A program made the translations under genes and the position numbers. A DNA stretch of 64,000 nt, taken from the IMG/VR virus record IMGVR_UViG_3300028840_006156. The stretch is one strand, 5' to 3'. Every line of letters starts with the position of its first letter. Position 1 is the stretch's first letter. A model generated the notes under the pieces. That model did not search any database and was not told the DNA's origin. It was given only the letters and a program-made list of their open reading frames with translations. This document shows, in pieces, positions 13,843 through 28,195 of this stretch. Source of the stretch: a virus.

Positions 13843-14058
13843 CTAGTACGGGATCGGGCGCCCCATGCGATGGCCTTCGATCGCGTGGTAGTGCCTGCGG
13901 CCACCTCGGCGGTGCGGCGTGTGGTAGCGGCGACCGTTCTCGACCCGACCCGTGTCGACGATCGTGCGACTTCCGTCGGCGTTGATTCGAATCGCGCACA
14001 CCACCGTGGTCGCGGGCTCATCGCCGAAGTCGACGCCGACGAATATCCCATCGCCCAT
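13843..14058 (-). CDS. 71-aa protein resembling the first strands of the terminase RNase H-like nuclease domain
   Basis: IFVGVDFGDEPATTVVCAIRINADGSRTIVD vs TerL CFTGIDLGSGKAPGSDRTAMVTVKLRADGKRQVVD; TGATG coupling. Confidence 0.55.
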   Translation of the reverse strand: MGDGIFVGVDFGDEPATTVVCAIRINADGSRTIVDTGRVENGRRYHTPHRRGGRRHYHAIEGHRMGRPIPY

Positions 14059-14327
14059 CAGTTCACGCTCACGTTCCCCCACGCGGGCTCATCGAGCCGC
14101 AGCGGGATGATGATCGCGCCCGCGCATCGAACGGCCTTCGCGTGTTCGAGGGCGAGCGTGTAGGTGCTAAAAGCCGCCGTCGAGCCCGCGTCATCCTCGC
14201 TCTCGTGGACCGCCGCGACCACCACGACCATCTTCGGGTCCGCGTCGACGGCCGCCCAGAACGCCGCCTCGTTGGCCTCGGCGTCCTCCTCGTAGTTCGG
14301 GACGATGACCTGGATCGACTCAGCCAT
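14058..14327 (-). CDS. hypothetical acidic protein
   Basis: Coupled operon from motif at 15655. Confidence 0.55.
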   Translation of the reverse strand: MAESIQVIVPNYEEDAEANEAAFWAAVDADPKMVVVVAAVHESEDDAGSTAAFSTYTLALEHAKAVRCAGAIIIPLRLDEPAWGNVSVN

Positions 14328-14589
14328 CTGTCCACTCCTCGGGGTCTTCGGAGAACTCCTCGATCAATCGGCTCAGCTGTCGGTCGAGGAGCTTGATCCC
14401 CATAGCGAACTCCGCGAACTCGGTCTCTCCGACGTGGCCGAAGTGGTGCGTGTTGCCGTTGCCCTGCCCGAGGGCGACGAACAACAGGCCGCGGACACGA
14501 CCGGCCTCCGCTGCTTCGAGCAGTTCGCGAAGCTTCACGATCACGTCCTCGTCGGGATCGGCCGGTCGCAGCTCGGTAACTTCAGCCAC
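14320..14589 (-). CDS. hypothetical phage protein (LRELLEAAEAGRVRGL family)
   Basis: GTG start overlapping upstream stop. Confidence 0.6.
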   Translation of the reverse strand: MAEVTELRPADPDEDVIVKLRELLEAAEAGRVRGLLFVALGQGNGNTHHFGHVGETEFAEFAMGIKLLDRQLSRLIEEFSEDPEEWTDG

Positions 14590-15619
14590 GGATCGCCTCG
14601 TCGGGATGCTCGACCACGAAGACGAGGTAGGTCTTACTCGCGTCGATCGGCTTCTTGCTGACGATCGCGGGCTCGGGGATCTTGTAGGTGTCCGGTGGTG
14701 CGACGGTCTCGAACATGCGTGCGTCGACGACGTCGAGGCCGCTGCCCCACGCAAGACCGGCGACGTCCAGCTCGCGCCCGAGATCATCGCGGACCTTGAA
14801 CGTCGAGTACAGCGATGTCACGCCCTCCGGTTCGGGTTCGAGTCCCTCGGTCCAGATCCGAAGCTCGCCGATGTCCGCGTCACGCCAGCCAAGGCCATCC
14901 GGCGTGGCGCCCAGCTGCTCGGCGTCGGCGAGGAACTTGAGCACCTCGTCGGCCGCGTCTCGGGTGTCGTCGGGCAGAGTGAACTCGACGAGCAGGCGGT
15001 TGGCCGGGAGCGGCTGCATGTCGTCCGTCAACTCGACGTCATGCGCGTAGCCGGCGACCCCTTCGACGCGGTGAGCATCGCCGGTCGACCAGCCGCCCTC
15101 GCGCGCAACGATCGGAGCGATCCAGGCCGCGCCCATCTGCCGCGCGGCGGCCTCGGCCTTCGACTTCGTGACTCGCCAAGCGGTCGGTCGGCAGCCGTCC
15201 CAGACCGGCTCGCCGTCGATCATCTCGTGGCTGAGGATGCCCCAGCCGCCGACCATCGGAGGGCCTTCGTGTGCGCGGGCCTCCTCGTCGTCGATGTCGG
15301 CCTCGGTCATCTCGTCGACATCGGGCGGGACGATCGGGCAGCCCTCGCCATCCAGGTACACGTACCCATCCCCGTGCACGAGCGTCGGAGCCTCGCGCAA
15401 GACTTTCGCCGCGGCCTGGACGTCGGCGAGGGTGAACGGCCGAAGGTGCGCGAGTACGACATCGCACGTGGCGATCATCAGATCGCGGTTCGGCGGCGGG
15501 ACCTCTGACCATGGCTTCGCACTCGCCTTGCGAGTCTCGTATCCGTGGTCGGGCGCGAGGCGTTCGTAGGTCTCATGAAACAGCTGCGCGAGTTGCTCGG
15601 GCGTTTCGATCTTGCTCAT
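14582..15619 (-). CDS. multi-domain hypothetical protein
   Basis: N-terminal LAQLFHETYERLAP.HGYETR phage motif; starts 8 nt after motif. Confidence 0.65.
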   Translation of the reverse strand: MSKIETPEQLAQLFHETYERLAPDHGYETRKASAKPWSEVPPPNRDLMIATCDVVLAHLRPFTLADVQAAAKVLREAPTLVHGDGYVYLDGEGCPIVPPDVDEMTEADIDDEEARAHEGPPMVGGWGILSHEMIDGEPVWDGCRPTAWRVTKSKAEAAARQMGAAWIAPIVAREGGWSTGDAHRVEGVAGYAHDVELTDDMQPLPANRLLVEFTLPDDTRDAADEVLKFLADAEQLGATPDGLGWRDADIGELRIWTEGLEPEPEGVTSLYSTFKVRDDLGRELDVAGLAWGSGLDVVDARMFETVAPPDTYKIPEPAIVSKKPIDASKTYLVFVVEHPDEAIRG

Positions 15620-15627
15620 CGACCGGT

Positions 15628-15655
15628 CTACCCGCGAGCGCGCCGGGTGCTTCCC
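15628..15655 (-). promoter_or_regulatory. GGGAAG-N17-GGTAG promoter motif inside palindrome GCTTCCCGGGAAGC
   Basis: 8 nt before ATG 15619. Confidence 0.8.
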
Positions 15656-15667
15656 GGGAAGCGAGGT

Positions 15668-16828
15668 CTAGCTCAGCGCCGGCACGCGGATCACGGTTCC
15701 TCGCGGAACGGTCGGCGAGAAGAAGCCGTTGTACTCGCTGATCTCCGTCCACTGGCTCGGGTCGCCGTACTTCTCGCGCGCGATGTCTCGCAGCGACGTG
15801 AAGCTGTCCGCGAAGATCGTCGCCAGGATGTCCTCGGTCTGAAACAGCGCCGCGAGCCGCTGCTGGTCCCGCGCGAAGCTCGACAGTTCGATCAGCCGAT
15901 CGCGCAGCTGTTGCTGGACGAGGTTGGCGATCTGGACCGAGTCCGCGTCGCCGACCAGCGCGCGCTCGCCCGCGGCGCTCCGGTTGGTGTCGAACAGCGA
16001 GAGCAAGTCGAGGACCTGCGAGCGAACCTGCTCGAGCGCCCCGGTGATCGTGTTGATCAGGTCGAAGGGGGCCGTGGCGATCGAGACGATCTGCTGCAGC
16101 GCGTCGACGAGGCTCTCGACGGTCGAGCCCAGCTGAAGGATCGGCCCGATCACCTTCGTCGTGAACGCGTTGGGCTGCTTGAGCGCGGCGAGCTCGAGCA
16201 GGTTTTCGTTGATCGATGCGAGGATGTCGGCAAGGCCGTTGGCCGTCGTAAGGGCGTTGTACTTCGTCGCGCGCTTGACCGGCGAGAACTGCGTGAGGCC
16301 GGTCCAGGTGAACTCCATCTCCCACGCGATGTCGTTGATCCGGTCGAAGTCGGCCGAGTACCGCGTGATCCGGCCGTAGCGGACGTACTGGTCCCACGAG
16401 AACCGCAGCTGCTGCCCCTCGACCATCATCAACTCGACGGCCGCGTCGACGGTGCGCGCGAGCCGAGCCGGCTGCGTCCCTGGGAACACGTTGGACGACT
16501 GGAACACCGCGCCCGAGGCGATCGAGTTCTGCGACTGGGCGCCCGGGGAGACCTGCGGGTAGTTTACGAGCTCGACGCCGTTGTCCTCGTCGGCGCTGAG
16601 CAAAAACTTGTCGTGCCAGGCTCCGCGCAGCGTCGTCGGCTCGAGGCGGTTCCCGATCACCTGCTGGTTGGCGACGGGGTTGCCGGGCAGCCAGGTCGTG
16701 TTGACCTGCAAGATCCGCGAGAGCTGCAGCGGGCGAAACGGGAGCGCGCGGCCCTTGAAGAGGAGCACCCGGCGCGAGCCGGTCGTCTGCTCGAGCACGA
16801 CGGGGGACGCGAACTGCTGCTCAGCCAT
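15668..16828 (-). CDS. tail tube initiator/baseplate protein with C-terminal LysM (gpU+gpX-like)
   Basis: C-terminal SLRDIAREKYGDPSQWTEISEYNG...GTVIRVP is LysM-like; directly after tape measure. Confidence 0.8.
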   Translation of the reverse strand: MAEQQFASPVVLEQTTGSRRVLLFKGRALPFRPLQLSRILQVNTTWLPGNPVANQQVIGNRLEPTTLRGAWHDKFLLSADEDNGVELVNYPQVSPGAQSQNSIASGAVFQSSNVFPGTQPARLARTVDAAVELMMVEGQQLRFSWDQYVRYGRITRYSADFDRINDIAWEMEFTWTGLTQFSPVKRATKYNALTTANGLADILASINENLLELAALKQPNAFTTKVIGPILQLGSTVESLVDALQQIVSIATAPFDLINTITGALEQVRSQVLDLLSLFDTNRSAAGERALVGDADSVQIANLVQQQLRDRLIELSSFARDQQRLAALFQTEDILATIFADSFTSLRDIAREKYGDPSQWTEISEYNGFFSPTVPRGTVIRVPALS

Positions 16829-16830
16829 GC

Positions 16831-16858
16831 GGGAAGTGTACGCGGGGCTCGGCGGTAA
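16831..16858 (+). promoter_or_regulatory. GGGAAG-N17-GGTAA motif overlapping TACACT of gene 16828
   Basis: 8 nt before ATG 16867. Confidence 0.8.
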
Positions 16859-16866
16859 AACAGGCG

Positions 16867-17319
16867 ATGAGCATCGACTACAACGTCCACGTTGGGGCCT
16901 ACATTCGCGTCTGGACCACGGTCACCCGAACGGAGGTCGATCTGTGCGCTGACCACGAGCACGGTGGTGGTGCATTCTGCTCGGAGTGCGGACGCCCCTC
17001 GAAGCGCCGGATGAAGGCCGAGGAGACCCGGCCTGATGACGGGTACTACGAGGCTCACATGGACGAGCGGCTGTGCCCGTGGGACGTCGGCGACCTCTAC
17101 GACGAGGGCCGGCGGACCTACGTCATGGTCGAGAACGGCGTCGACACGACGGGTCTGCATATCGATCCGAAGTATGACGACAGCGCCGAGCAAGCGATGC
17201 CCGACGAGGCAACGTGCGAGGCGAACTTCAAGGAGCGCTACGCCAAGGAGATCGCGTGGCTCGTCGCGCACGACTGCGAGGTCGAGGTCCGCTTTGGCGT
17301 CCTCAGCTGGTCCTACTAG
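16867..17319 (+). CDS. zinc-ribbon hypothetical protein
   Basis: CADH...CSEC; antisense between TMP and LysM genes. Confidence 0.65.
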   Translation: MSIDYNVHVGAYIRVWTTVTRTEVDLCADHEHGGGAFCSECGRPSKRRMKAEETRPDDGYYEAHMDERLCPWDVGDLYDEGRRTYVMVENGVDTTGLHIDPKYDDSAEQAMPDEATCEANFKERYAKEIAWLVAHDCEVEVRFGVLSWSY

Positions 17320-19556
17320 GTCCCCTGCTCGATCGCGCCGTAGGCCTGGACGCGCCGGTCCGCGAGGCCGGCCGTCTTCTTGATGAACGCCGCGAACAGC
17401 CGGTCGGGGTCGGGGTCCGTCGTGTTGATCACGACCTCGACCTTGCCGATCTTCGTCCCGCCTGGAGCCCGCTTGTCCTTGTCCTTGTCCTTGCCCGCGA
17501 GCATGTCGGACAACGACTGCTGGAGGTCCTTCGCCTTCTTCTGGGCGGCAGCAAACTGCATCGGGGTGAGTTGCGCATCTCGCACTGCGTCAGCTGCCTT
17601 GTGGAACCTGTCCGCGGTCTTGAGGTTCGCGCTTGCTGCGCCGTAGGCCGAGTCGCGGATCCCGTCGATCGATGCGATCGCTCCGTCGAGTCCGTCGCCG
17701 ACCTTGGGGATCTTCGACATGACTCGAAGGCCGTCGCCGATCAGCTGGAGTAGCGCCGAGAAGGCGAGCCGGAACGCTCCGAAGGCCTCGATCCCGTAGG
17801 CCACGATGTCGATCATCCCGCCGAGGACCATCGACGCGAAGTCGACTGCGCCGGTGAGCATGTCGAGGCCGCTGACCATCACCGTCGCCGCGTCGGTGCC
17901 CCCGAACATGGCGACACCGACCAGGCGCAGTCGCTCGTAGAACGTGTAGAGCGACGTGATCAGCGGGAGCAGCGAGATCTTGCCCGACTCAATCGCACCG
18001 ACGAGCGACGCCTTGATCTCGTCCCACGATGTGGCGACGTAGGCCGCGAGGCCGCCGACGACCACGGCGACGCCGGAGAACGCGAGCGCGAGTCCGCCAG
18101 CGGCGACGCCGACGCCAGCGATCAGGGGGGCGAGCGTGGCGAACTTGAGGATCGTCTTGTCCATCCCTCGGAACAGCCGCAGGCCGCCCTTCCCCCCGCC
18201 GATCTTTCCGGTGATCCGTGACAGGCCTCGGCCGAGCATCCCGAGCCCGCCGCCGCCCTTCCGGCCACCCATGCCCCGACCGATCGCCATGTGTCGACGC
18301 CTGGCCATGGCGCCGAAGCCTTCACGTCCGCGCCTCATCCCTGCGCCGACGACCTGCGCAGCGGCCATGCCCTTGCCCGCGATGATCATGCCGTAGCCCG
18401 CGACGAGACGAGCGGTCGCCACGACGCTCGCTGCCTTGAGTGCAGCGCCCGCGAGCACGCCGGCCTCCTGGATCTTCGTCGCGATGTCGCGCCAGTGGGT
18501 GGCGACGTACCAGGCCCCGCGGTGTAGCCGGTCGAACAGCTTGTCGGCTGCCTTCGACAGCTGCTGACCCGCGAAGCTCGCGGCATTTTCCATCGTGTCC
18601 ATGCCGCCGCCGAAGGTGCTGATCCCGACCTTGCCGGTGGCACGGCTCATCGCGCGCTTGAGGCTGTCCATGAGCGGGGCAGCAAAGGCGCCGGCTAGCG
18701 TCATGCCCTCGGACTTCATCGTCGACGCGAGGCCACCGAAAGACTTGCCGAAGGCCGTTGCCGCCTCTTTCGAGACCCCATCGACCGCGACCTCGACGAT
18801 CTTGAGCGCCGTGTCGCCGCTTTGCTTCGCCAGCTTGTTGAACATCTGGGCGAAGTCAGCCTCGGTCTCCTTGCCGGTGACCTTCTTGAACGCTTCGCGG
18901 AGGTTGGGCTCGAGCTGCGAGAAAACAGCGACGTCAGCACCTGCGAGGCCACGTACGATCCGGCCGACGTCGGCGCCCATCTGCTTGTAGTCACCGCCGG
19001 TCGTGAACGCGAGCAGCGAGACCTTTTCCATCAGGTCGCGCTGGCGTTTCAGATCCTTGGTCACGCCGGTCACGCCGGGCGCCATCGCCGAGTAGGCCGT
19101 GGCGATGTCCTCGTAGGTTGCGGGCGACTTCTTGGCGATGTCGTAGAGCTCCGCCTGCATCCCCGCGGCGAGTTCGCTGGCCTTGGCGAACTCGGTCATC
19201 TGCCCGGTCATCACGGCCTGGGACTGACCGGCGACCCCGAACAGCTGGTACATCGTCGCCAGGCCGAGCCGGCCCTGCTCCATCTCGGAGTTGAAGCGGA
19301 CGCCCTCGCTAGCCGCCGCCGCGACGCCTCCGACGAGCGCACCGCCGGCCGCCATTGCGCCCATCCTCGCCCACTCGCGAGCAGTCTGGCCAAAGGTCCC
19401 CCGCACGCGCTCTCCCGCGGACACGAGCCGGCTCGACATCGACGCGTAGGACTTGCCGACGGTGTCCGCCGCGCGAGCCATGCCGATCGCCTCGCGCTGG
19501 AAGCTGCCCGCGGTCTTCAGGTTCGCGCGGACGTCGTAGGTGATCCCCTGCGGCAC
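17316..19556 (-). CDS. tail tape measure protein
   Basis: 746 aa Ala/Gly-rich helical protein; AKKSPATYEDIATAY TMP motif; follows chaperone genes. Confidence 0.9.
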   Translation of the reverse strand: MPQGITYDVRANLKTAGSFQREAIGMARAADTVGKSYASMSSRLVSAGERVRGTFGQTAREWARMGAMAAGGALVGGVAAAASEGVRFNSEMEQGRLGLATMYQLFGVAGQSQAVMTGQMTEFAKASELAAGMQAELYDIAKKSPATYEDIATAYSAMAPGVTGVTKDLKRQRDLMEKVSLLAFTTGGDYKQMGADVGRIVRGLAGADVAVFSQLEPNLREAFKKVTGKETEADFAQMFNKLAKQSGDTALKIVEVAVDGVSKEAATAFGKSFGGLASTMKSEGMTLAGAFAAPLMDSLKRAMSRATGKVGISTFGGGMDTMENAASFAGQQLSKAADKLFDRLHRGAWYVATHWRDIATKIQEAGVLAGAALKAASVVATARLVAGYGMIIAGKGMAAAQVVGAGMRRGREGFGAMARRRHMAIGRGMGGRKGGGGLGMLGRGLSRITGKIGGGKGGLRLFRGMDKTILKFATLAPLIAGVGVAAGGLALAFSGVAVVVGGLAAYVATSWDEIKASLVGAIESGKISLLPLITSLYTFYERLRLVGVAMFGGTDAATVMVSGLDMLTGAVDFASMVLGGMIDIVAYGIEAFGAFRLAFSALLQLIGDGLRVMSKIPKVGDGLDGAIASIDGIRDSAYGAASANLKTADRFHKAADAVRDAQLTPMQFAAAQKKAKDLQQSLSDMLAGKDKDKDKRAPGGTKIGKVEVVINTTDPDPDRLFAAFIKKTAGLADRRVQAYGAIEQGT

Positions 19557-19568
19557 CGCACGAGCGTA

Positions 19569-19844
19569 TCAGCCGGAGCCGTCCCCGTTCTCGGCTTCGA
19601 GGATCTTGCTGATCCCGTCGGCAAGCTCGACGAGGCGGACGAATGGCATGCGGTCGAGGTAGTCGGCCTGCTGGCCGCCGTAGCGCATCAGGTACGCGAC
19701 GACCTCCTTGTCCATGCGCCGGAGCGTCTTGGCGAGCTCGCCGCTGCGGACGTAGATCACGAAGCCCGCGGTCTCGAAGTCGGGTCGGACTCGTGCGCGG
19801 CTCAGCCTTCGACCCAAACTCGGCTGGCGCGCACGGCCTTTCCC
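19569..19844 (-). CDS. -1 frameshift extension of tail assembly chaperone (gpGT/T-like)
   Basis: Open -1 frame from the slippery site to TGA 19569 ends ...VVAYLMRYGGQQADYLDRMPFVRLVELADGISKILEAENGDGSG. Confidence 0.75.
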   Translation of the reverse strand, partial: GKGRARQPSLGRRLSRARVRPDFETAGFVIYVRSGELAKTLRRMDKEVVAYLMRYGGQQADYLDRMPFVRLVELADGISKILEAENGDGSG

Positions 19845-20602
19845 TCGGCGTCCGTCGGCTGGATCGACGCGACGAACGTCCGGTTGACCAGCATCTGCGC
19901 CTTCGGGCTCAGCCTCGACCACCACTCGCGCGGGTCCGAGTTGCCGCCGGCGGAGACGATGAACTGGACGCAGTCGTCGATCGATCCCGCGCGCGAAGAC
20001 AGGCGACGGACCTCGGCCGTCGTTGCGTCGCGCAGGGCGAAGGCGAGGTCCACGGGACCGCCCTTCCAGTGGCGCGAGTCCATGACCGACATGGGTAGCG
20101 AGCAGATGATCCGGTCGCCATCGCGTCGGCGCGTGGACTCCATCTCGATCACGTCGACGTCGGTGGGCAGCACGAGCGCGACGAACTCCTGCAGGATCGA
20201 CATCTGGACCTTGCCGGTCCGCGTGTGCCACCAGGTCGTCAGCTCGAGTCCGCCGCGATGACGTCCGCCGGCGGCGAGGTAAGGCAGCACGACCTCGGGT
20301 CCGGGCGAGCGAGCGAGCTGCTCGGCGAAGGTAAAAACCTCCTCGGCCTCGGGCTCGCGCAACCCGAACTTGAGGTCGGACTCGTCGCCCTTCCAGTGCG
20401 AGTTGTCCATCACATCTGGATGGAGGTCGAAGCCGAAGAACCCGCCGGACTTCAGGGCTGCAGGCGGCTTCTCTCCGGTCAGCGCGGGGGGTGGGATCGT
20501 CGCCTGCATCGGCGGCGGCTCGGTCTTCTTCGAGATCGTCACGCCCTCGGGCTTCGCCTGCGATACGCCAGGCGCCTCCATGAATCCGTCCCAGGTGGTC
20601 AT
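19802..20602 (-). CDS. tail assembly chaperone (gpG-like) with two tandem internal domains
   Basis: Between tube and TMP; TACCCT-N6-ATG at 20602; slippery heptamer near 3' end. Confidence 0.75.
   Translation of the reverse strand: MTTWDGFMEAPGVSQAKPEGVTISKKTEPPPMQATIPPPALTGEKPPAALKSGGFFGFDLHPDVMDNSHWKGDESDLKFGLREPEAEEVFTFAEQLARSPGPEVVLPYLAAGGRHRGGLELTTWWHTRTGKVQMSILQEFVALVLPTDVDVIEMESTRRRDGDRIICSLPMSVMDSRHWKGGPVDLAFALRDATTAEVRRLSSRAGSIDDCVQFIVSAGGNSDPREWWSRLSPKAQMLVNRTFVASIQPTDAEGKAVRASRVWVEG
19804..19954. repeat. 151-bp direct repeat, copy 1 (3' end of chaperone gene)
   Basis: 8 mismatches versus 21657-21807. Confidence 0.95.
19838..19844 (-). other. -1 programmed frameshift slippery site G GGA AAG
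   Basis: Same heptamer as lambda gpG/gpGT, in the Gly-Lys frame. Confidence 0.8.
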
Positions 20603-20647
20603 GCGGCGAGGGTAGCAACCGACGAGGTGCGCGGGTAGGGTTGGTGC

Positions 20648-21025
20648 ATGACCACCACCGATCCCGATCCCGACCGCATCATGGACGGGTTTTTTCGACA
20701 CAGCCGCTTACTCGCCATGAAGGGGCAGGAGTGCCAGGTCGACATGTTCGTCGGCGGTGAACGGCTCGACGGCCTGCAGTGCATGTCGCTGACCGAGGCG
20801 CGCGGCGTGGCGACCTCGGTCTGGAAAATCGTCGACGCGACCCAGCTGCCACGCGTCGAAGCGGGCGTCGACCTCGAACTGCGTACACGCTTCGCCGACC
20901 CGCGCGGCAACGTGCAGCCGTGCGTCTGGACGGGGCGAGTCGTCGGTCTCGGGCTCGCTGGGCGCTCGGACTTCGTCACGGTCACGATCGAGGGCGTACG
21001 TCGCGAGTGGGGCGAGTCCGAGTGA
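20648..21025 (+). CDS. tail-tube paralogue with internal deletion, N-terminally carrying the TMP C-terminal motif
   Basis: KGQEC.V and RSDFVT...EGV shared with tube; TTDPDPDR shared with TMP C-terminus. Confidence 0.7.
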   Translation: MTTTDPDPDRIMDGFFRHSRLLAMKGQECQVDMFVGGERLDGLQCMSLTEARGVATSVWKIVDATQLPRVEAGVDLELRTRFADPRGNVQPCVWTGRVVGLGLAGRSDFVTVTIEGVRREWGESE

Positions 21026-21384
21026 GCGTCCGAGCCCGCCTCGCCGACCCGATCCGCGACAGCGGCGACATCGAAGCCGAGGCCGCGGTCCTCGTCGCCG
21101 ACGGCAAGGTCTACGCCGGCGCAACGCCCGAGGACGCCTTCGAGCAATGGCTCGCGCTCACGAAGTGGCTGATCGAGAAGATGCAGCCGAGCGCGCTTTG
21201 GCAGGCGCTGATCATCGCGCAGCGCCACGCCGAGGTCGCGCGGGGTGACCACGGTCGAGCTCGCGCGGGCGCTCCGATCATGACGCCGACGACGGTGCTC
21301 GAGGTGGCGAAGGCGAAGCTCGGGGCGGACGTCTACGCGAAGCTCCGCGCCGCCTGTGTCGACTGGCTGCGCGGAGTAGACTGA
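21022..21384 (+). CDS. hypothetical protein
   Basis: GTGA overlap. Confidence 0.5.
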   Translation: MSVRARLADPIRDSGDIEAEAAVLVADGKVYAGATPEDAFEQWLALTKWLIEKMQPSALWQALIIAQRHAEVARGDHGRARAGAPIMTPTTVLEVAKAKLGADVYAKLRAACVDWLRGVD

Positions 21385-21389
21385 CCTCC

Positions 21390-21647
21390 ATGACCATCTC
21401 GATCACGCTCCCCGTCACCGCCGAGCAGGCCGCCGCGATCATCAAGGCCGGGCCCGGGACCGTCGTCCATCACCCGCACGCTCGCGGGCGCAGGGTCGGC
21501 GACTTGAAGGCCGCGCTCGGGCGCGCTGGGGTTCCGCACAGGCTCGTGCAGACGCTGGGCTACTCGACGACGGGCGACGCTCCGAAGGCGCCTGAGAAGC
21601 CAGCGAAGGCTCGCAGGGCGTCGAAGAAGGCGAAGCCCGAGGACTAG
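21390..21647 (+). CDS. hypothetical protein with Lys-rich tail
   Basis: TAGACT-N7-ATG upstream. Confidence 0.55.
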   Translation: MTISITLPVTAEQAAAIIKAGPGTVVHHPHARGRRVGDLKAALGRAGVPHRLVQTLGYSTTGDAPKAPEKPAKARRASKKAKPED

Positions 21648-22065
21648 GGTCCGAAGAGCCTTCGACCCAAACTCGGCTGGCGCGCACGGCTTTTCCCTCG
21701 GACTCCGTCGGCTGGATCGACGCGACGAACGTCCGGTTGACCAGCATCTGCGCCTTCGGGCTCAGGCGTGCCCACCACTCGCGCGGGTCCGAGTTGCCGC
21801 CCGCGGACTCCTCGGCGTGCTCTGTGACCATGGCCCGGTTGATGTAGCCGTGGCGTGGTGTCGCGTCCTCGACGATGACGAGGCGGCGCGCGCAGTAGTG
21901 ACCATCCGCCCCCAAGTAGGCCATCCGCCAAACCCCTGGCTCTGCGGTCAGTTCGCGCCACATCTTGGCGTGCGGAGTCCAGTGCTCCATCCCGTCGAAC
22001 TCGGCCTGCGTGACCTCGGTGATCGGGAGCTTCGTCTCGGGGTCGAATCGGCCTACGTGTCGCAC
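21442..22065 (-). CDS. chimeric protein: novel N-terminus fused to the chaperone C-terminal 50 aa; -1 frame stops at 21644
   Basis: GTG 7 nt after motif 22073-22100; contains repeat copy 2 with G GGA AAA. Confidence 0.6.
   Translation of the reverse strand: MRHVGRFDPETKLPITEVTQAEFDGMEHWTPHAKMWRELTAEPGVWRMAYLGADGHYCARRLVIVEDATPRHGYINRAMVTEHAEESAGGNSDPREWWARLSPKAQMLVNRTFVASIQPTESEGKAVRASRVWVEGSSDPSPRASPSSTPCEPSLASQAPSERRPSSSSPASARACAEPQRARARPSSRRPCARERAGDGRRSRARP
21657..21807. repeat. 151-bp direct repeat, copy 2
   Basis: About 95% identical to 19804-19954. Confidence 0.95.
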
Positions 22066-22072: not shown

Positions 22073-22100
22073 CTACCGACCGCGCCCGCGGTCGCTTCCC
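22073..22100 (-). promoter_or_regulatory. GGGAAG-N17-GGTAG promoter motif
   Basis: 7 nt before GTG 22065. Confidence 0.8.
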
Positions 22101-22308
22101 GGTGAACGATCCGGCCGCGATCGTCACTACCCAAGCATGGACCACGAGATCGAGATCGCCGCCATCCTGCACGCCACTTGCCGCCCCACCGAGCCCCTGC
22201 CGCCCCGTCTTCTCGCCGCCGGCTACAAGCGCTGGACCGACCCGAGCGGGCGCGTCCGAGTGCTGACGTCCTGCCCGTCTCTCGGTGGACCCTGGCGACA
22301 CAGCCCGG

Positions 22309-22545: not shown

Positions 22546-22561
22546 GAGGGGATGATAGCGC

Positions 22562-22589
22562 GGGAAGCGATCGCGGGTTCTGGTGGTAG
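22562..22589 (+). promoter_or_regulatory. GGGAAG-N17-GGTAG promoter motif
   Basis: 7 nt before ATG 22597. Confidence 0.8.
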
Positions 22590-22596
22590 ACCGCGC

Positions 22597-22866
22597 ATGA
22601 AGATCGAGACCACGGGACGAGGCTTCCAGATCATCACATTCGAGGATCGGTACGGTCAGCCGTGCTCGCTGCAGGAGTCGTCGCTCGCCGACGGCGCGCA
22701 CGTTTGGCTGGGAGTCAGCAAGCGCACCGACTTGAACACCGGCGCCGAGTTGGCCGACAGCAAGAACTTCCGCATGCACCTCTCGCGCGATCATGTCCGT
22801 GAACTGCTGCCGCATCTCATCGCCTTCGCCGAGACCGGGGGCATCGCGATCACAGAAGGGGCGTGA
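22597..22866 (+). CDS. conserved phage protein (RGF..F.DRYG..CSLQESSLA...RMHL family)
   Basis: Recognisable phage family motif. Confidence 0.7.
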   Translation: MKIETTGRGFQIITFEDRYGQPCSLQESSLADGAHVWLGVSKRTDLNTGAELADSKNFRMHLSRDHVRELLPHLIAFAETGGIAITEGA

Positions 22867-22909
22867 CCGTACCCAACGGCCACGCCCCTCGGGGTCGATG
22901 CTCCCGCTC

Positions 22910-23353
22910 CTACAGGTCGACGTCCTTGACGTCGCTCACGACGCCCTCGAGACTCAACGTCACGAAGTCGCTTCGCGAGCTGATCGCGTTCTCCAGCGGG
23001 CCGAAGAAAATGTCTTGCAGCTGGATCTGTCGCGTCTGTCCGGTGGGCAGCGCCGCCGCGAAGGACAGGTCGAACTGGGCAGCTGAGCCCGCCCGACGCT
23101 TCGACCGGTCGATGATCTGCTGGCGCAGGATGTAGGGCTGTACGTCCTCGATCTGTAGCGTCGCCGAGAAGGTCGTGTTCCGGTAGATGTCGTCGTTTCG
23201 CGTCGCGACCTCCCCGAGCAGGTCCTCAGACAGCTGCTCGACGTTGTCGGTCACGGTCAGGTCGACGACGGCGTTGAACGCCGCGCTGATCGTGTTGTTC
23301 ACCAGGAAGCTGACGAAGCACTCCTGGCCCTTGAGACGTGGGTTTCCAGCCAT
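22910..23353 (-). CDS. tail tube protein
   Basis: 147 aa directly downstream of sheath; SD-like GAGGAG upstream. Confidence 0.8.
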   Translation of the reverse strand: MAGNPRLKGQECFVSFLVNNTISAAFNAVVDLTVTDNVEQLSEDLLGEVATRNDDIYRNTTFSATLQIEDVQPYILRQQIIDRSKRRAGSAAQFDLSFAAALPTGQTRQIQLQDIFFGPLENAISSRSDFVTLSLEGVVSDVKDVDL

Positions 23354-23377
23354 GGCGGTCTACTCCTCGAAGGCGGC

Positions 23378-25936
23378 TCAGGCCGCGGCGGCGGTCACCT
23401 GCGCGGAGGTGACGACGGTCTGGCCGACGGTGACGTCGAAGACGATCGCGTCGGCGGTGGCGAGCATGCGCACGGCAACCCGGGCGCGCAGAATGTTGGG
23501 GACGTCGGGGTCGCTCGTGTCCGTGACGTCGAAGGACTCGATCCGCTGGGCTTGCGGCTGGTCCAGCGACTGCAGGCCGGTCAAGAAGTTGATGATCTGG
23601 CCGAAGAAGTTGCGGCGCAGGTCCTGGGTGATCAGCTTCTTGCCGTAGGGGACCGCGAGGATGAACAGGCTGTCGTTGATGAAGTCCGCGAACCATCGAC
23701 GGTTGGCGGGCGTCTGCGAGGCCTGGGTGAGCGAGTCGACCGAGGTGACGTCGTCGACGAAGGCGGCGCCGGCGGTCCGGTCGAGGATCGGCGCGGTGAT
23801 CCCCTCGCGCTTGAACCGGATGTAGTCGTTCACGTCGAGCTTGGTGCTGCCCTCGCTGAGCGGGTCGTAGGCGGGCTCGAGGCCGGCGACGTTGAGGCGA
23901 CCGACGTTGGTCGAGCGCAGGTCCTGTCCGGAGCTCTGCTCGGGCGGGATGATCGAGCGGATCGCCGCGAGCCAGCTGTCGGCGCCGACGGGCACGACGC
24001 CGTCGTCCGTGAAGCCGACGCCACCGCTGGCGCCCTGCTCGGCGATCTCCTGGATCCGCGCCTGGAAGCCGGGGAAGGCGAACTGCTTGCGCTCCTCGCG
24101 GAGCGCCGCGTTCTCGGCGACGGCGTCGTCCACCGAGACTCCGAGCCGCGGCCGGACGATCGTCTTGCGGCCGGACAGGCCAGCGGCCGTGGCCTCGCGG
24201 GCGTTGATCTGCAGCTCGTTGTTGATCGCCGGCGACGTCCGGGCCGAGCAGATCGCGTTCGCTTCGCGGGCCGGCGGGGCGTCGACGTTGGTCTCCCGGA
24301 TCGCCGCGATGTAGCGCGAGTCCAACTGCGCGGACGTGAGGCGCGTGATCGACAGCGGGTTGGTCACCGCAAAGCCGCCGGGCAGGTCCGATAGGATCAC
24401 GGTGACGTCGTTGGGGCCCGAGGCGAGCGCGGCGTCCGTGTCGTCGAACGGTCGGACCTTGGCCTCGAAGGGGCCGCCGCCCGTGCCGGTCTGGACGTCG
24501 GACATCGTGATCCAGACCGTCGCCGTCGAGGTCGCGTCCTGGACCCGGGTGCCCGCTGGGATCGTCAAGTCTGGCCCGTTGGCCGCGTCGACCGTGGTCG
24601 TCGTGTCGAATCCGAGGGCTGCGAGCAGCGCGCCCGAGTCGCCCTTGATCGCGCCGGTGCCGGGCGTGAGCTCGTTGCAGGCGCGCAGGGTGCCGTCGCT
24701 GTTGACGGTCGAGCCGAGGTTGGCAGCGGCGTCGAGGATCGCGGCCGCCTCCTGGGCGGAGAAGCTCGACGCGTCGCCGACGTTCCCGGTACCGAAGACC
24801 TCGAGCGCGACGCCGGGGACCGTGTTGGCCACGGTGACCTCGGCTCCGCCGGCGAGCATCGTCAGCCCGGTCAGGATCTGGTTGTCCGCGCCGGTGACCG
24901 TGATCGCATCGATGCCCGATGCGGCGAAGATGAAACCCGGGACGCCGAGTTGCGAGAGTTGGGGCGGATCCGTGACCGCGTCGCTCAGGAGCTTGTCGCG
25001 CTTGAGCGTGACCGACCCGATCACGCCCGAGAAACTCGCGGTGTCGAAGTCGGTGGCGACGCCGTCGACGATCCGCGAGACGCGGGCCTGAGTGGCGATC
25101 CCGCTGTCGCCGGTGACGGTCAAGGTCCAGACGTCCTGGACCACCGCGGTGGGCAGACCGAGGTCCGAGAGCGCGGTCCCGCCGACGATCTTGATCCGGG
25201 CCTCGGACCCGGCGCGGACGGACCGGAGCTCGAGCTGCCCGCCGTTGTCGAACGCGATCGTCGCCGCGACCTTGGCGTTGATCCTGGCGATGACGTCGGC
25301 GAGCGTGATGTCCGTCGACGCGAACGTGATCGTCTGGGCGTCCGCGTCGCTCGCGTCGTCCCAGGCCACGATCAGCGTCTTGTTGGTCAGGGTGCCGAGC
25401 GGTAGCGGGTAGACGACGCCGGACGCGAGGATCGAGGCCTTCGTGGCGTTCAGCGTCGCCGTCGCCGTCGTGGCGCCGTTGTTCAGGTCGAACACGGCCT
25501 GGTCCCCGTTGGCCGCGGAGAACGGGCCCGAGCCGCCGTTTAGGCAGGCCAGCCGCGTGAGCTCGACGACGCCAGCGGAGCTGTCCACGCGGTGGATCAG
25601 CAGCCGGTTGAAGACCTTGTTGGCCGTCCAGACGAAGACGTTGCCGTTCCACGCCTCGCTGCCGCCGGACTGCTGGGCGACCGGGCCCACGTGGGGGCCG
25701 ACGCCGGTGATCGGCCAGCCCAAGCCGCCGAAGGTCTGCTCGCGCGAGGTCGGGTTCGTGACCTCGGTCGTGACGCCGATCGGCCCCTTCTCGGTCTCCC
25801 CGACGATCAGGATCGTCCCCGTGCCGGCCCCGAACAGGAGCTGCGGCGGAGCACGGTCGATGATGTTGGTGCTGGCGACGTTGAGAAACGTCGCGTTGCC
25901 GGGGTCATCGAGAAAGACGCGGCGGAAGGCGACCAT
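23378..25936 (-). CDS. contractile tail sheath protein
   Basis: LIVGETEKGP....VT N-terminus, VNDYIRFKREGI...DDVTS...RRWFADFI C-terminal sheath motifs. Confidence 0.9.
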   Translation of the reverse strand: MVAFRRVFLDDPGNATFLNVASTNIIDRAPPQLLFGAGTGTILIVGETEKGPIGVTTEVTNPTSREQTFGGLGWPITGVGPHVGPVAQQSGGSEAWNGNVFVWTANKVFNRLLIHRVDSSAGVVELTRLACLNGGSGPFSAANGDQAVFDLNNGATTATATLNATKASILASGVVYPLPLGTLTNKTLIVAWDDASDADAQTITFASTDITLADVIARINAKVAATIAFDNGGQLELRSVRAGSEARIKIVGGTALSDLGLPTAVVQDVWTLTVTGDSGIATQARVSRIVDGVATDFDTASFSGVIGSVTLKRDKLLSDAVTDPPQLSQLGVPGFIFAASGIDAITVTGADNQILTGLTMLAGGAEVTVANTVPGVALEVFGTGNVGDASSFSAQEAAAILDAAANLGSTVNSDGTLRACNELTPGTGAIKGDSGALLAALGFDTTTTVDAANGPDLTIPAGTRVQDATSTATVWITMSDVQTGTGGGPFEAKVRPFDDTDAALASGPNDVTVILSDLPGGFAVTNPLSITRLTSAQLDSRYIAAIRETNVDAPPAREANAICSARTSPAINNELQINAREATAAGLSGRKTIVRPRLGVSVDDAVAENAALREERKQFAFPGFQARIQEIAEQGASGGVGFTDDGVVPVGADSWLAAIRSIIPPEQSSGQDLRSTNVGRLNVAGLEPAYDPLSEGSTKLDVNDYIRFKREGITAPILDRTAGAAFVDDVTSVDSLTQASQTPANRRWFADFINDSLFILAVPYGKKLITQDLRRNFFGQIINFLTGLQSLDQPQAQRIESFDVTDTSDPDVPNILRARVAVRMLATADAIVFDVTVGQTVVTSAQVTAAAA

Positions 25937-25967
25937 GCCGCGAGGGTATCAGCCTCTCGGGCTGGCG

Positions 25968-26273
25968 TCACAGGGGCGACCTGAGCAGACCCAGGGCAGC
26001 TGCGCGCTCCAGCCCGAGGCGCTCACCGATCGTGCCCTCGATCATCGCGTGGCCGAGATCCTCGCACGCGTCGGAGACGGCATCCGCAAGTGCCACCGAT
26101 CCATCGTGGGCGGTAAGCCACGGGCTTACGCTAGCGACGCCGCGGCGCCATCCGCAAGACGCTACGACAGTGACGACGCCGTAGATGGACGAGGCCGGTG
26201 TGCACGTGACGGTCGCCGGCAACTCGCCGAGCACGCTCCGGGCTACCCGGCTAACGATCTGCTGGTCGTTCAC
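25968..26273 (-). CDS. hypothetical protein
   Basis: GTG 7 nt after motif 26281-26308. Confidence 0.6.
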   Translation of the reverse strand: MNDQQIVSRVARSVLGELPATVTCTPASSIYGVVTVVASCGWRRGVASVSPWLTAHDGSVALADAVSDACEDLGHAMIEGTIGERLGLERAAALGLLRSPL

Positions 26274-26280
26274 GCCCGGT

Positions 26281-26308
26281 CTACCGCGCGCCCCCGCGTC
26301 AGCTTCCC
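26281..26308 (-). promoter_or_regulatory. GGGAAG-N17-GGTAG promoter motif
   Basis: Exact spacing. Confidence 0.8.
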
Positions 26309-27159
26309 GCGACCGTAGCCTCGACGTCGAACTGGAAGCCGTCGACCACGCCGGGGATCGTCACGAGCTCGACCACGGGCGCCTCGGCGAGGATGCTGAC
26401 CTCGAGCACCCACTCGTTCACGCGCGCGCCCTCAGCGTTGTCCGGCCGCGTCGTGTCCTGCAGCTGGTAGCGGATCGACCGCGAGAAGTACTCCGGCACG
26501 ACCACGTGCCGGGCGCCGATGTCCTGCCGCGGCTCGCCCGCGAGCGCGTTGATGATCCGCGAGGCGAACCCCCTGCGCTGGTCCTTGTGCGCGAACCACA
26601 CGACGACCGCGAGCGGGATCTCCTGGACGCCCATGTAGCGCAGCACCGTCCCCTCCATGAACCGGTCCTGGGTCTCCTCGAGCAGCCGAGGCGTGAAGCC
26701 AGCGACGTCGAAAGGCGCGGGATCGGGTCCGGTGATCAGCGCCGTCTGAGCCGGCATCGACTCCTTCTGCTGGCCGTCGGGCCAGTCGAGGTGGATCTTC
26801 GTCAAGCGGTGCGGCTCGCGGCTCGTGCTGATCGTCTTCCCGAGCTCGGCGAGGATCTGTAGGTCGAAGCTGCGCCACCGCATCGCGTCGAGGATCCGGT
26901 AGAGGCCGAGCATGGCCGCGTCCTTCGGGGCCATGGTGACGACCGCGGCGCCGTCGGGCGGGAACGACTTGGTCTGCTGAGCGGGGAGGATCTCGCCGTA
27001 GCCCGAGATCCCGACGAGTGACCGGGTCCCGTCGGGGTTCGCGATGATCTCGACCGTGTACGCCTCTTCGGGCGGGACCCCTGCCGGGCGCGGTGGGACG
27101 CCGATCGTCGGGACGTCTGGGCGGATCGAGTCGGGGTCGAAGGTGCGCTTGATCTGCAC
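26299..27159 (-). CDS. putative tail completion/terminator protein
   Basis: Position upstream of sheath; TACGCT-N6-GTG. Confidence 0.6.
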   Translation of the reverse strand: MQIKRTFDPDSIRPDVPTIGVPPRPAGVPPEEAYTVEIIANPDGTRSLVGISGYGEILPAQQTKSFPPDGAAVVTMAPKDAAMLGLYRILDAMRWRSFDLQILAELGKTISTSREPHRLTKIHLDWPDGQQKESMPAQTALITGPDPAPFDVAGFTPRLLEETQDRFMEGTVLRYMGVQEIPLAVVVWFAHKDQRRGFASRIINALAGEPRQDIGARHVVVPEYFSRSIRYQLQDTTRPDNAEGARVNEWVLEVSILAEAPVVELVTIPGVVDGFQFDVEATVAGS

Positions 27160-27161
27160 CC

Positions 27162-27189
27162 GGGAAGCGTACACGGGCGGCGGCGGTAG
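27162..27189 (+). promoter_or_regulatory. GGGAAG-N17-GGTAG motif followed by a ~100-nt leader
   Basis: Overlaps TACGCT of gene 27159. Confidence 0.75.
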
Positions 27190-27196
27190 AGTTGGG

Positions 27197-27299
27197 CGAC
27201 ACCAAGCAACACAGACCCGGAGGTGAGCCATGCGACCGTAGACATGAACCCGGAGCCCCGCACGCAGCCGTAAGGCCGAGCGCCGGGGCTTTCGGGGTG
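27197..27299 (+). promoter_or_regulatory. structured 5' leader with two uORFs (MRP*, MNPEPRTQP*)
   Basis: GGAGGTG-N4-ATG at 27230; AGCCCCG (27254-60) pairs with CGGGGCT (27284-90); inner GCC-GTAA-GGC hairpin. Confidence 0.45.
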
Positions 27300-27749
27300 A
27301 TGGACCCCGAGACCAAGCGACTCCTCGAAGAAGCTCTACGGACGATGGTGGCGCCTCGTCCGGTGGCGCCCGTTGTCCGCGAGTTCACCGCGTTCGAGCG
27401 CGCCGTCGAAGAGGCCGGCCGGAAGTTCTACGAGCAAGCCAAGGACGGCCGGGGCTACCAGTTCGTGCGCGACGACGGCTCGAAGATCGGTCCGCCGTTC
27501 ATCGTGTCGAAGCCCACCCCGCCGATCTGCGAGCGCAGCGGAAACCCGAGCGGGACGGACACCTGGAGCCTCGGCCACCCGTGCCCGTGCAAGCCATGCA
27601 CGACCTACTGCGCGCTGCTCGACGACGGCGTGCCGTTCATCGTCAACGCGAGCGCGCTCCCGGGCACCTACCGCGAGCCGCTGACCTACGTCGGCCCCGT
27701 GCGCTCGGGCAGCCTGCGCGAGTTCGAGGACGAGGAGTCAGGACGATGA
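27300..27749 (+). CDS. hypothetical protein with Cys motif (CPCKPC)
   Basis: Start MDPETKRLL after GGGGTG. Confidence 0.6.
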   Translation: MDPETKRLLEEALRTMVAPRPVAPVVREFTAFERAVEEAGRKFYEQAKDGRGYQFVRDDGSKIGPPFIVSKPTPPICERSGNPSGTDTWSLGHPCPCKPCTTYCALLDDGVPFIVNASALPGTYREPLTYVGPVRSGSLREFEDEESGR

Positions 27750-28195
27750 GGCTCAAGGGCAAGTCCAAAGTGACGATCCTGCGCCCGGATGGCGTCGCCT
27801 GGACGCTGCCGGTCGAGGAGCTATCCATCTTCGAGTTGCCCGACTCGCGCGATCCCAACGGCCCTAGGCGCTTCGACAACATCTACGAGGGGGAATCCTT
27901 CTCGATGACGGTGCAACTCGAACCGACCGCGATGGACGTCCTGCGCGAGTTCATCGCGAAACAACAGCAGCGGCTAGACCCAAGGCCTGGGCTCGTGGTC
28001 TCGGTCCCTCGGTTCAGCCACTACGACGTAGCTCTCGCGCTGCGTATGCGGCAGCACGTGCCGGTCGGTGGCGACGTCGTGGACATGTACTCCGGGCCCG
28101 GTTCGTTGATGTGGGTCGAGTCGCCCGAGGACGATGGCGACGGGCTCATCCGCTACACGCTGCGGCGTGGCCAGGACCTCGTGAGGTCGGCGTGA
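27746..28195 (+). CDS. tail-tube paralogue (N-terminal half) with unrelated C-terminus
   Basis: RLKG, VEELS, RFDNIYEGESFSMTVQLE vs tube RLKG, VEQLS, RNDDIYRNTTFSATLQIE. Confidence 0.7.
   Translation: MRLKGKSKVTILRPDGVAWTLPVEELSIFELPDSRDPNGPRRFDNIYEGESFSMTVQLEPTAMDVLREFIAKQQQRLDPRPGLVVSVPRFSHYDVALALRMRQHVPVGGDVVDMYSGPGSLMWVESPEDDGDGLIRYTLRRGQDLVRSA

Follow-up and report, generated by a model that had tools for sequence, protein, structure and literature searches.

Introduction

Does a phage keep, among its tail genes, partial copies of its own late proteins, and do such copies act together? The question is raised by an uncultured myovirus (84 kb, 68% GC; contigs from sediment and seawater metagenomes), of which we analysed a stretch of 64,000 nucleotides, here called the window, whose minus strand encodes the tail module. 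A preliminary description proposed that four small open reading frames (ORFs), here A to D, imitate tail and packaging proteins of the phage and form one system of pre-emptive decoys or assembly blockers. Host STAND sensors are documented for the tail tube (Avs16, which binds a conserved inter-ring beta-hairpin of the tube), the tail assembly chaperone (Avs17), the tape measure protein (TMP; Avs18) and also the terminase (PMC13581612), and DSR2 is described as sensing the tail tube (PMC10981675). All four ORFs are present as described; independent gene callers run on public contigs call A, B and D, and C is left uncalled on the full-length contig. The ORFs and the genes that they resemble are:

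13843..14058, minus strand: D, 71 aa, aa 2-36 weakly like the first beta-hairpin of the terminase (TerL) nuclease, tail His/Arg-rich
17316..19556, minus strand: TMP, 746 aa, C-terminal motif INTTDPDPDRLFAAFI encoded at ~17382-17432
19569..20602, minus strand: G/GT-type tail assembly chaperone (chap1 19802-20602, chap2 19569-19760)
20648..21025, plus strand: A, mini tail-tube paralogue, 125 aa
21442..22065, minus strand: C, chimeric ORF, GTG start 7 nt downstream of its promoter motif
22910..23353, minus strand: tail tube protein, 147 aa, the protein that A and B resemble
27746..28195, plus strand: B, 149 aa, N-terminal ~80 aa like the N-half of the tube, C-half unrelated
51118..52686, plus strand: large terminase, nuclease first hairpin matched by D at ~52078-52194

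The loci were compared with those of the relatives L003, L004 and L005, and also with L006 and L008; the orthologues of A are P0179 and P0180.

Results

We find that A is the one ORF of the four with orthologues. As a single sequence it matches a 112-sequence tube profile at P 9e-4 (12 negative controls, P 0.03-0.74), and hhalign of its three-member family against the tube family gives P 1e-6 and a probability of 91% over 99 collinear columns. The top matches of its AF2 model (pLDDT 77) are solved tail tubes and Hcp, with Z up to 9.2, in keeping with the proposed likeness, and in the Atlas it reaches TM 0.56-0.63 to tube clusters. On these alignments and this model A is a genuine truncated tail-tube homologue, and the similarity is strong. 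The protein consists of a copy of the TMP C-terminal motif (aa 1-12, MTTTDPDPDRIM), a variable linker (aa 13-23) and a truncated tube-fold domain (aa 24-125), which is some 40 residues short of tube length and lacks most of the central motif that is the most conserved in the tube family. Amino acid identity to the tube is about 30%, with synonymous sites saturated.

Two other phages carry intact, syntenic orthologues of A at the corresponding position. Identity to P0179 is 71%, as against 63% for TMP, 54% for the chaperone and 63% for the neighbouring A2 in the same phage pair; identity to P0180 is 63%, as against 45% for A2. A is thus better conserved than neighbouring essential tail genes, and by this comparison it is a real gene under purifying selection, which refutes its dismissal as functionless debris. 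The TMP C-terminal motif is conserved in the TMP of a distant relative and in P0179, the orthologue of A. The peptide TTDPDPDR is the same in A and TMP, encoded with five synonymous and no non-synonymous codon differences, which points to selection on the peptide. In P0179 the 12-aa motif of A is identical and the neighbouring linker has diverged; the peptide is absent entirely from P0180, and hence is not essential to the A family. Two cassette partners follow A:

21022-21384, plus strand: A2, 120 aa, kept in all relatives
21390-21647, plus strand: A3, 85 aa, kept in L004

The slot of A is occupied in L003 and L004 by unrelated genes that are not tube-like. The tube-chaperone junction is an accessory slot whose cargo varies between relatives.

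In all-versus-all BLASTP of 370 ORFs, the match of C alone stands above noise. Its first ~90 residues have their homologue in L003, in a gene of 102 aa, and are followed by a 50-aa copy of the chaperone C-terminus (E 2e-27). The source (19804-19954) and the copy (21657-21807) form a direct repeat of 151 nt with 95% identity, and the chaperone's slippery heptamer, in phase as G GGA AAG at 19838-19844 where the -1 frame enters chap2, was carried along as the variant GGGAAAA (21691-21697). The likeness to the chaperone is certain, and at the sequence level C is a recent chimera of a conserved small gene and the 3' end of the G/GT chaperone. Its stop is lost, frame 0 continues antisense into A3 and the read-through tail has bad codon usage; C looks like a by-product of recent recombination.

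B resembles the tube moderately, as judged from its sequence. It shares RLKG, VEELS, RRFDNIYEG and a helix with the tube N-half, including R-x-D-x-I-F/Y-x-G, the most conserved central motif of the tube family. The match to the family (P 6e-6, probability 85%) spans 40 columns only, BLAST of aa 1-70 against relatives' tubes gives E 0.004-0.016, and the structure model is poor (pLDDT 44.5). Codon usage of A and B is gene-like (GC3 0.86-0.87; score 0.29-0.41 per codon). B is translationally coupled, by an ATGA overlap, to the upstream gene:

27162..27749, plus strand: block holding a promoter motif, then a ~100-nt leader with mini-ORFs, then the Cys-rich B0 (start ~27297/27300)

Conservation of B0 is limited to its final ~25 aa, which recur in a 61-aa ORF of L004; B is missing at that locus.

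For D the proposed mimicry is marginal. The alignment to the TerL nuclease (P 7.8e-5; controls, P 0.77-0.82) covers 35 columns, 35 aa of a ~200-aa domain, and includes the invariant G321 and D323 and with them the first catalytic Asp; the match is not robust, since thousands of gene pairs were implicitly inspected and it would fail correction for multiple testing. D also codes weakly (codon score 0.12 per codon). A lineage-specific cassette ends with D, which overlaps the upstream gene by TGATG and has its TAG stop inside the TAGACT -10 of the next gene:

14058-14327, minus strand: p89b
14320-14589, minus strand: p89a
14582-15619, minus strand: p345

As a whole block this cassette is missing in L004 and L005; only p89a is matched, weakly and over a short length, in L003, L004 and L005. 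The observed likeness to the phage's own proteins holds for the most part: for C, A and, less firmly, B, with D weak.

The reported division of promoters is also seen, with one restriction. GGGAAG-N17-GGTAR occurs 23 times against 0.11 expected, and the class is common to A-D (degenerate for A) and the replication genes; TANNNT-N6-start stands at the sheath, TMP, chaperone and 627-aa genes. The GGGAAG class is not exclusive to accessory genes and lies also upstream of the sheath region (26281-26308, minus) and of baseplate genes (3810-3837, minus). The promoter features, with the candidate reader of this class, are:

15628-15655, minus strand: motif of the p345-p89a-p89b-D cassette
20610..20638, plus strand: degenerate promoter of A, GGGTAG-N18-GGTAG-N9-ATG
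22073-22100, minus strand: motif of C, GGGAAG-N17-GGTAG
27162-27189, plus strand: motif of the B0-B operon
63340..63885, minus strand: phage RNA polymerase sigma factor, 181 aa, which may read GGGAAG-N17-GGTAR

The -35 of the A promoter is the reverse complement of the TACCCT -10 of the chaperone gene, and the arrangement is kept in L006 and L008.

As reported, A-D are accessory: all lie within promoter-bounded cassettes and are missing or replaced in L003, L004 and L005, and neither 5.8 billion proteins nor the relatives' loci yielded an orthologue of B, C or D. A single four-part system is not supported. The ORFs belong to separate transcription units, their ages are very unequal (C, 95% nucleotide identity; A, ~30% amino acid identity) and orthologues exist for A only, so that a coordinated system is not demonstrable. 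Temperate functions, integrase and repressor were not seen in the 64-kb window, which leaves a prophage-style defence without support and weakens a reading as superinfection blockers.

Discussion

The account that we favour, tentatively and at a little short of an even chance, is that A-D arose independently as partial self-duplications of late genes, differ in age and came to lie in variable accessory slots of the tail module, which are bounded by promoters and turn over fast; selection would have kept A as a mimic of the tube and the TMP end. From its sequence and model, A is a good candidate for an interferer with, or protector of, tail assembly. Its transcription probably depends on the phage sigma factor and coincides with that of the replication genes, ahead of tail building, and the protein should be unable to polymerise like the tube. 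A may occupy the surfaces on which the TMP C-terminus and the first tube subunits normally dock, or be mistaken for that terminus or those subunits, and would then modulate or block tail assembly in the manner of Tab, or serve as a decoy; as a decoy it could titrate factors aimed at the TMP end or the tube. As A resembles in its motifs the TMP and tube of the very phage that encodes it, blocking would carry a danger of self-poisoning, and no antidote partner was identified. B may act as A does or be a young gene whose function is not settled; C and probably D would be by-products of the ectopic recombination that seeds such genes. Against this account, small tube-fold domains are also ordinary building blocks of baseplate and hub.

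An unlikely alternative makes A, and perhaps B, a minor structural protein of the tail of the ordinary kind, such as a tube initiator, cap, hub domain or fibre anchor, whose gene happens to lie on the other strand. The tube fold is known to recur in initiators, terminators, and hub and Dit domains; A is strongly conserved, its nearest Atlas feature neighbours include the baseplate-hub and Dit-type mini domains GpP-like_1st, XkdQ/YqbQ and Dit, and its PDB matches include baseplate tube-like chains. However, L003 and L004 keep the same sheath-tube-chaperone-TMP-baseplate gene order yet have unrelated genes in the slot of A and lack B, the promoters of A and B are of the replication type rather than the virion-gene TANNNT-N6, both proteins miss a large part of the tube domain, and the remaining opposite-strand cassette genes with a clear identity in the window (DHH phosphoesterase, methyltransferase, sigma factor) are non-structural.

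Genome turnover alone, with A-D as young or decaying ORFs, functionless debris left where late genes and cassette slots recombined illegitimately, is improbable for the set. It suits C, clearly a recent junction product, the weak coding statistics and marginal match of D, and the lack of orthologues of B, C and D, and the 23 near-identical 28-nt promoter motifs could serve as recombination substrates; it runs counter to the conservation of A across three phages, the gene-like codon usage of A and B, the B0-B coupling and the synonymous-only differences in the shared motifs.

Very doubtful is a set of coordinated pre-emptive decoys, in which early A and B (tube), C (chaperone) and D (terminase) occupy DSR2 and Avs sensors without triggering them: sensors for tube, chaperone, TMP and terminase are known (PMC13581612), replication genes use the promoter class too, B retains the central motif and the genes in these slots turn over as arms-race loci typically do, but a fragment that binds a pattern-recognition sensor is expected to activate rather than silence it, our literature search turned up no decoy made from a copy of the sensed protein, A lacks most of what would be the Avs16 target if the central motif is the hairpin, D is a marginal fragment, C without its stop looks non-functional and conservation is limited to A. 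Decoys or blockers as an interpretation of the whole set are only partly plausible.

Several known systems share features with the favoured account. Tube-fold paralogues include T4 gp48/gp54 initiators, terminators, hub/Dit domain 1, T5 p140 and Hcp, and tube gene duplication is the classical origin of tail adaptor proteins. They have the tube/Hcp beta-sandwich in common with A, which is detectably homologous to its own phage's tube; they are core, syntenic, late-expressed virion parts, whereas A and B are truncated and restricted to a lineage, lie antisense to the tail operon under a replication-type promoter and are replaced in relatives by unrelated genes. Morons, like the A-D cassettes, place one to four small genes with their own promoter between late genes, in fixed slots with variable cargo, but classical morons carry foreign cargo and here part of it stems from structural genes of the phage itself. 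Ccm of SaPIbov5, homologous to a capsid protein, hijacks assembly for a satellite; such hijackers, as proposed for A, are diverged copies of a structural protein that interfere with or redirect assembly, but they are satellite-encoded and target helper capsids, whereas A is phage-encoded and tail-related. DSAD1 is a phage-encoded anti-defence protein against the tube-sensing DSR2, not described as a tube copy in the abstracts on it (PMC10981675 and others); A or B would likewise be a phage accessory protein keeping a host sensor from responding to the tube, with the difference that DSAD1 acts against DSR2 and sensor binding by A or B is purely hypothetical.

A precedent is Tab of Pseudomonas phage JBD26, which blocks tail assembly; its small gene lies among late genes on the opposite strand and has a promoter of its own, sensitivity to it maps to the TMP C-terminus, and an anti-Tab exists (PMC10884400); Tai systems likewise block tail assembly (PMC11364771). 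Tab is prophage-expressed, recognises TMP and is not reported as a copy of a tail protein, whereas A is a tube-fold fragment with a TMP-end mimic, in a window with neither an identified antidote partner nor lysogeny functions. By description, both are small genes opposite the late operon, with their own promoter, amid structural genes, both are accessory and variable among relatives, and Tab acts via the TMP C-terminus, the very segment copied by the N-terminus of A.

Results

The window is 68% GC along its entire length, and codon-position statistics combined with a self-trained codon model show that the minus strand between position 1 and about 31.8 kb encodes a contractile-tail module. The full 84-kb contig (L001) was found 100% identical in two metagenomes, one from sediment and one from seawater, and a search for sequencing runs turned up only DNA metagenomes. 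Among 50,697 deposited phages there was no match to 16 kb of sequence (megablast) or to the tape measure protein (TMP) and sheath (tblastn), and a scan of IMG/VR with the sheath confirmed no close relative.

Main genes of the window and the four small ORFs resembling the phage's own proteins
28286-28789, minus-strand tail module: Neck1/gp10-like tail completion protein
minus-strand tail module: putative sheath, 852 aa
22910-23353, minus: tail tube, 147 aa
minus-strand tail module: TMP, 746 aa, weak TMP_3 match
minus-strand tail module: gp25-like gene and baseplate J genes
from 32 kb, plus: replication genes, then large terminase TerL (phrog_38, E 1.6e-40), portal and MuF
63340-63885, minus: phage sigma factor, 181 aa, phrog_1740
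20648-21025, plus: A, resembling tube and TMP
27746-28195, plus: B, resembling tube
22065 to 21442, minus: C, resembling the tail assembly chaperone
13843-14058, minus: D, resembling TerL

The late genes are broken up by small cassettes, which frequently lie on the opposite strand. Where a cassette gene has an identifiable product, that product is non-structural (DHH phosphoesterase, DNA methyltransferase, sigma factor). No integrase or repressor was seen among the window ORFs scanned. The DHH phosphoesterase (56211-57032, minus; phrog_4771, E 5.6e-81) is encoded between portal and MuF, against their direction and behind its own GGGAAG promoter, and may be an anti-defence enzyme that degrades nucleotide signals. 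An 89-aa gene adjoining the tube on the opposite strand (22597-22866, plus) matches phrog_3849 (E 4.5e-22) and is among the few cassette genes having relatives in known phages.

The tube, the reference for A and B, has an Atlas feature score of 0.97 and TM-scores of 0.72–0.89 to several tube families. Exhaustive HMMER searching gave 185 homologues, which were then aligned; a word-indexed homologue search returned the tube itself only. Between tube and TMP lie chap1 and chap2, a lambda-type G/GT tail assembly chaperone. An in-phase G GGA AAG heptamer is found at 19838-19844, 35 nt ahead of the chap1 stop, and the -1 frame continues directly into chap2. Chap1 (19802-20602, minus) contains an internal tandem duplication of a unit of ~100 aa, as does that of the related contig L006; its counterpart in the related contigs L003 and L004 is a single-unit protein of 173–175 aa.

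Plain BLAST aligns A with the tube over only 16 aa and with the TMP over only 23 aa, both at noise level, yet collinear at both ends (KGQEC..., ...RSDFVT.T.EGV). In hhalign, A alone matches the tube profile with P 9e-4, and the A family (n = 3) matches 112 tube sequences with 91% probability over 99 columns (P 1e-6; A 21-120 on tube 4-141), against P 0.03–0.74 for 12 negative-control proteins. AF2 models residues 23-125 with confidence (pLDDT 77, pTM 0.69) and residues 1-22 as disordered. Foldseek ranks pyocin tube and lambda gpV best, and VIA-align gives Z 9.2 (rmsd 3.0, 101 aa) to the tube of cyanophage A-1(L), its top 50 being mostly tubes, Hcp and hub domains. The structural similarity to tube expected by the preliminary description was thus found, and A is predicted by the model to have the tube/Hcp beta-sandwich fold. 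A is about 40 residues shorter than the tube and has lost most of the best-conserved central motif (LxEGYLGETxxRxDxIFxG). A complex prediction of the tube with A(21-125) scored 0.00, which speaks neither for nor against an interaction, and the shared Cys, Ser and Phe of A and its own tube may co-vary, at too few sites for a claim.

Ahead of this domain, the N-terminal peptide MTTTDPDPDRIM of A copies INTTDPDPDRLF at the TMP C-terminus, and across the eight shared residues the two differ at 5 synonymous and 0 non-synonymous sites. The motif is kept in the TMP of L004 (INTTDPSVDRLM). A combined search found two orthologues of A, P0179 (128 aa, 71%) and P0180 (105 aa, 62–63%), both in the same synteny: TMP, chap2 and chap1 on one strand and, divergent from chap1, A followed by its cassette partner A2 and a third gene. 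The TMP-like peptide is identical in P0179 despite a diverged linker after it, and wholly absent from P0180. A is a new, small family of three members, and scans of IMG/VR and JGI metagenomes confirmed nothing further of it.

Comparison with neighbouring genes showed A to be the better conserved (71% and 63% in the two orthologues). In L006/L007, from ENA ERZ925372, identity is 71% for A, 63% for TMP, 54% for the chaperone and 63% for A2; in L008, from JGI 3300035185 and carrying the A without the peptide, it is 63% for A and 45% for A2. In the more distant L003 and L004 the cassette retains A2, and in L004 also the second partner A3, and the slot adjoining the chaperone is filled by unrelated, non-tube-like genes. 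These positional counterparts were considered as diverged orthologues of A and rejected. Since A outdoes its neighbours in conservation and yet is replaced in L003 and L004, we regard it as a selected but dispensable, lineage-restricted gene.

B has gene-like codon usage and is coupled through an ATGA overlap to the preceding ORF, B0. Its residues 39-78 match the tube profile with 85% probability and P 6e-6, over 40 columns only, and the match includes RRFDNIYEG, corresponding to R-x-D-x-I-F-x-G of the tube family, so the central motif is retained. The first 70 residues of B also match the tubes of L003 and L004; its C-half is unrelated. From these two sets of matches B is probably tube-derived. 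Its structure models are poor (AF2 single-sequence pLDDT 44.5) and unusable for fold. No orthologue of B was found among 5.8 billion proteins, and the corresponding position in L004 is occupied only by a 61-aa ORF that matches the end of B0. A complete tube domain, with central motif and both halves, is needed for building stacked rings. Neither A nor B has one, A being without most of the central motif and B having an unrelated C-half, and we do not class them as tube proteins proper. They also fail as core tail genes, lying on the opposite strand with their own promoters.

A 151-nt direct repeat (19804-19954 and 21657-21807, 95% identity) brings the final 50 codons of chap1 into C, including the slippery heptamer as the variant GGGAAAA. 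The stop codon, at which the copy ends exactly, is lost. Frame 0 goes on antisense through A3 for another 72 codons, whose scores are strongly negative, and the -1 frame ends after about 16 codons (aligned sequence, by eye). The first ~90 residues of C are homologous to a 102-aa ORF of L003 behind the same promoter motif. The earlier term 'chaperone chimera' is accurate in joining these two parts. Because C holds only the last 50 aa of chap1 and the -1 frame soon stops, it is a fragment and not a chaperone; it has the look of a junction formed recently, not of an evolved protein, and gene callers skipped it on L001. An independent assembly of the same phage, the Logan contig L002, breaks within repeat copy 2 (window 21736), which is consistent with the repeat being real and hard for assemblers.

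D is the final ORF of a same-strand cassette (p345-p89a-p89b-D) missing from L004 and L005. Residues 2-36 align with TerL 315-353, covering the first nuclease hairpin with its invariant Gly and Asp (P 7.8e-5; control comparisons, P 0.77–0.82). The match is short, the ORF is weakly coding and, at 71 aa, D is not the complete nuclease domain of ~200 aa, having only the first Asp of the catalytic acidic residues. Motifs of the hhGhDhG type are common in RNase H-like and ASKHA folds. Taken on this alignment, true homology of D to the TerL nuclease is a real but lesser possibility. We also considered D as the broken N-terminus of an in-frame 627-aa gene and rejected this, because the L005 homologue of that gene has its own ATG and nothing D-like upstream. 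A hypervariable slot (window 13843-16828, L005 8679-12995) separates the 627-aa gene from that of a 386-aa protein of the baseplate region. It holds p345-p89a-p89b-D here; in L005 it is taken up by five small ORFs plus a 512-aa N6/N4 methyltransferase, not all on one strand.

Two promoter classes, one for accessory and one for virion genes, had been proposed. The window has 23 copies of GGGAAG-N17-GGTAR, all of the same spacing, where 0.11 would be expected (window 3810-59781); they stand ahead of replication genes and of cassettes. TANNNT-N6-start is found at the genes for sheath, TMP, chaperone and the 627-aa protein, and the tube gene, downstream of the sheath gene, carries a GGAG ribosome-binding site. 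Both classes are real. The GGGAAG class is not strictly accessory, since it also occurs ahead of the sheath region and of baseplate genes. Its likely reader is the phrog_1740 sigma factor.

GGGAAG motifs at the small ORFs
22073-22100, minus: motif of C
27162-27189, plus: motif of B0-B
15628-15655, minus: motif of p345-p89a-p89b-D

In most copies checked the start codon follows 7–9 nt downstream, a spacing compatible with leaderless transcripts. The B0-B operon differs: its leader of ~100 nt contains mini-ORFs at ATG 27230 (MRP-stop, behind GGAGG) and ATG 27244 (9 codons) and a possible hairpin (27190-27299, plus) ahead of the B0 start at 27300, and may be regulatory. A has a degenerate promoter, GGGTAG-N18-GGTAG-N9-ATG, whose -35 is the reverse complement of the chaperone gene's TACCCT -10, an arrangement kept in two other phages. 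A further GGGAAG promoter (26281-26308, minus) is followed by 345 nt holding only a poorly coding 101-aa ORF (25968-26273) before the TACCCT-N6-ATG of the sheath; this stretch (25937-26308, minus) could be an unexplained leader RNA or small gene.

None of A–D has a family in Pfam (also at E up to 10) or PHROGs, or a match in PADLOC v2 (2023), which is older than the tail assembly blocker Tab of phage JBD26 and the Tai systems. In plain all-vs-all BLASTP the matches of A, B and D are not separable from noise. Because the gene pairs were picked after looking over roughly a hundred genes, we corrected roughly for the several thousand pairs compared implicitly, after which A and C are significant, B is borderline and D is not. 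The claim that these ORFs are pieces of the phage's own proteins is partly confirmed: firm for A and C, moderate for B and weak for D.

Discussion

Tube, chaperone, TMP and terminase are now known as targets of bacterial immune sensors and prophage-encoded blockers. Phage answers to these are, to our knowledge, mostly unknown. The preliminary description read A–D as one coordinated system of decoys or assembly blockers. Their accessory status and the selection on A stand; a single system is not supported, because the four differ in age, conservation and transcription unit. Their common thread would instead be origin, with late-gene fragments copied into variable slots bounded by promoters. As a route to new phage genes, the locus would offer C as a fresh example and A as an old and retained one.

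Both the fold and the TMP-end peptide of A are under selection, most of the central tube motif is gone, and the promoter is of the replication-gene class. These four observations suggest that A may engage tail-assembly interfaces without being a tube subunit. We tentatively propose, as a reading that is unlikely in its full form, that the A family is a self-mimic: a non-polymerising mini tube with a TMP docking peptide, matched by selection to its own tube and TMP, which would cap or poison tail initiation of co-infecting relatives, or sequester Tab-like blockers, Avs16/18-like sensors and other such host or prophage factors that detect the tube and the end of the TMP. In this reading B would be another, more recent member and would present the complementary tube half. 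A role of A as a decoy for host sensors is conceivable, given that sensors of the tube hairpin, chaperone and TMP exist (PMC13581612), but a sensor-binding fragment might equally trigger the sensor. A minor structural tail protein is possible in that mini tube-fold domains are common as baseplate parts (Atlas), although its lack of conservation in relatives speaks against this. If the self-mimic reading is true, a conserved accessory protein made of a truncated copy of the phage's own tube and the TMP end motif would be a compact, testable case of self-mimicry in virion assembly or counter-defence, and A is in any case a neat, testable candidate in an uncultured phage.

Several known kinds of gene resemble what we describe. 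Like moron-type accessory cassettes, the cassettes described here have their own promoters, lie between conserved late genes and hold cargo that varies among relatives, and A further resembles both tube paralogues and tail-assembly modulators. The closest precedent for A is Tab, which is encoded among late genes but on the opposite strand, has its own promoter and blocks tail assembly with a specificity that maps to the TMP C-terminus (PMC10884400); the Tai systems are similar (PMC11364771). A is like Tab and Tai in form: a small accessory gene that lies within the late operon, runs against it and has a promoter of its own (PMC10884400).
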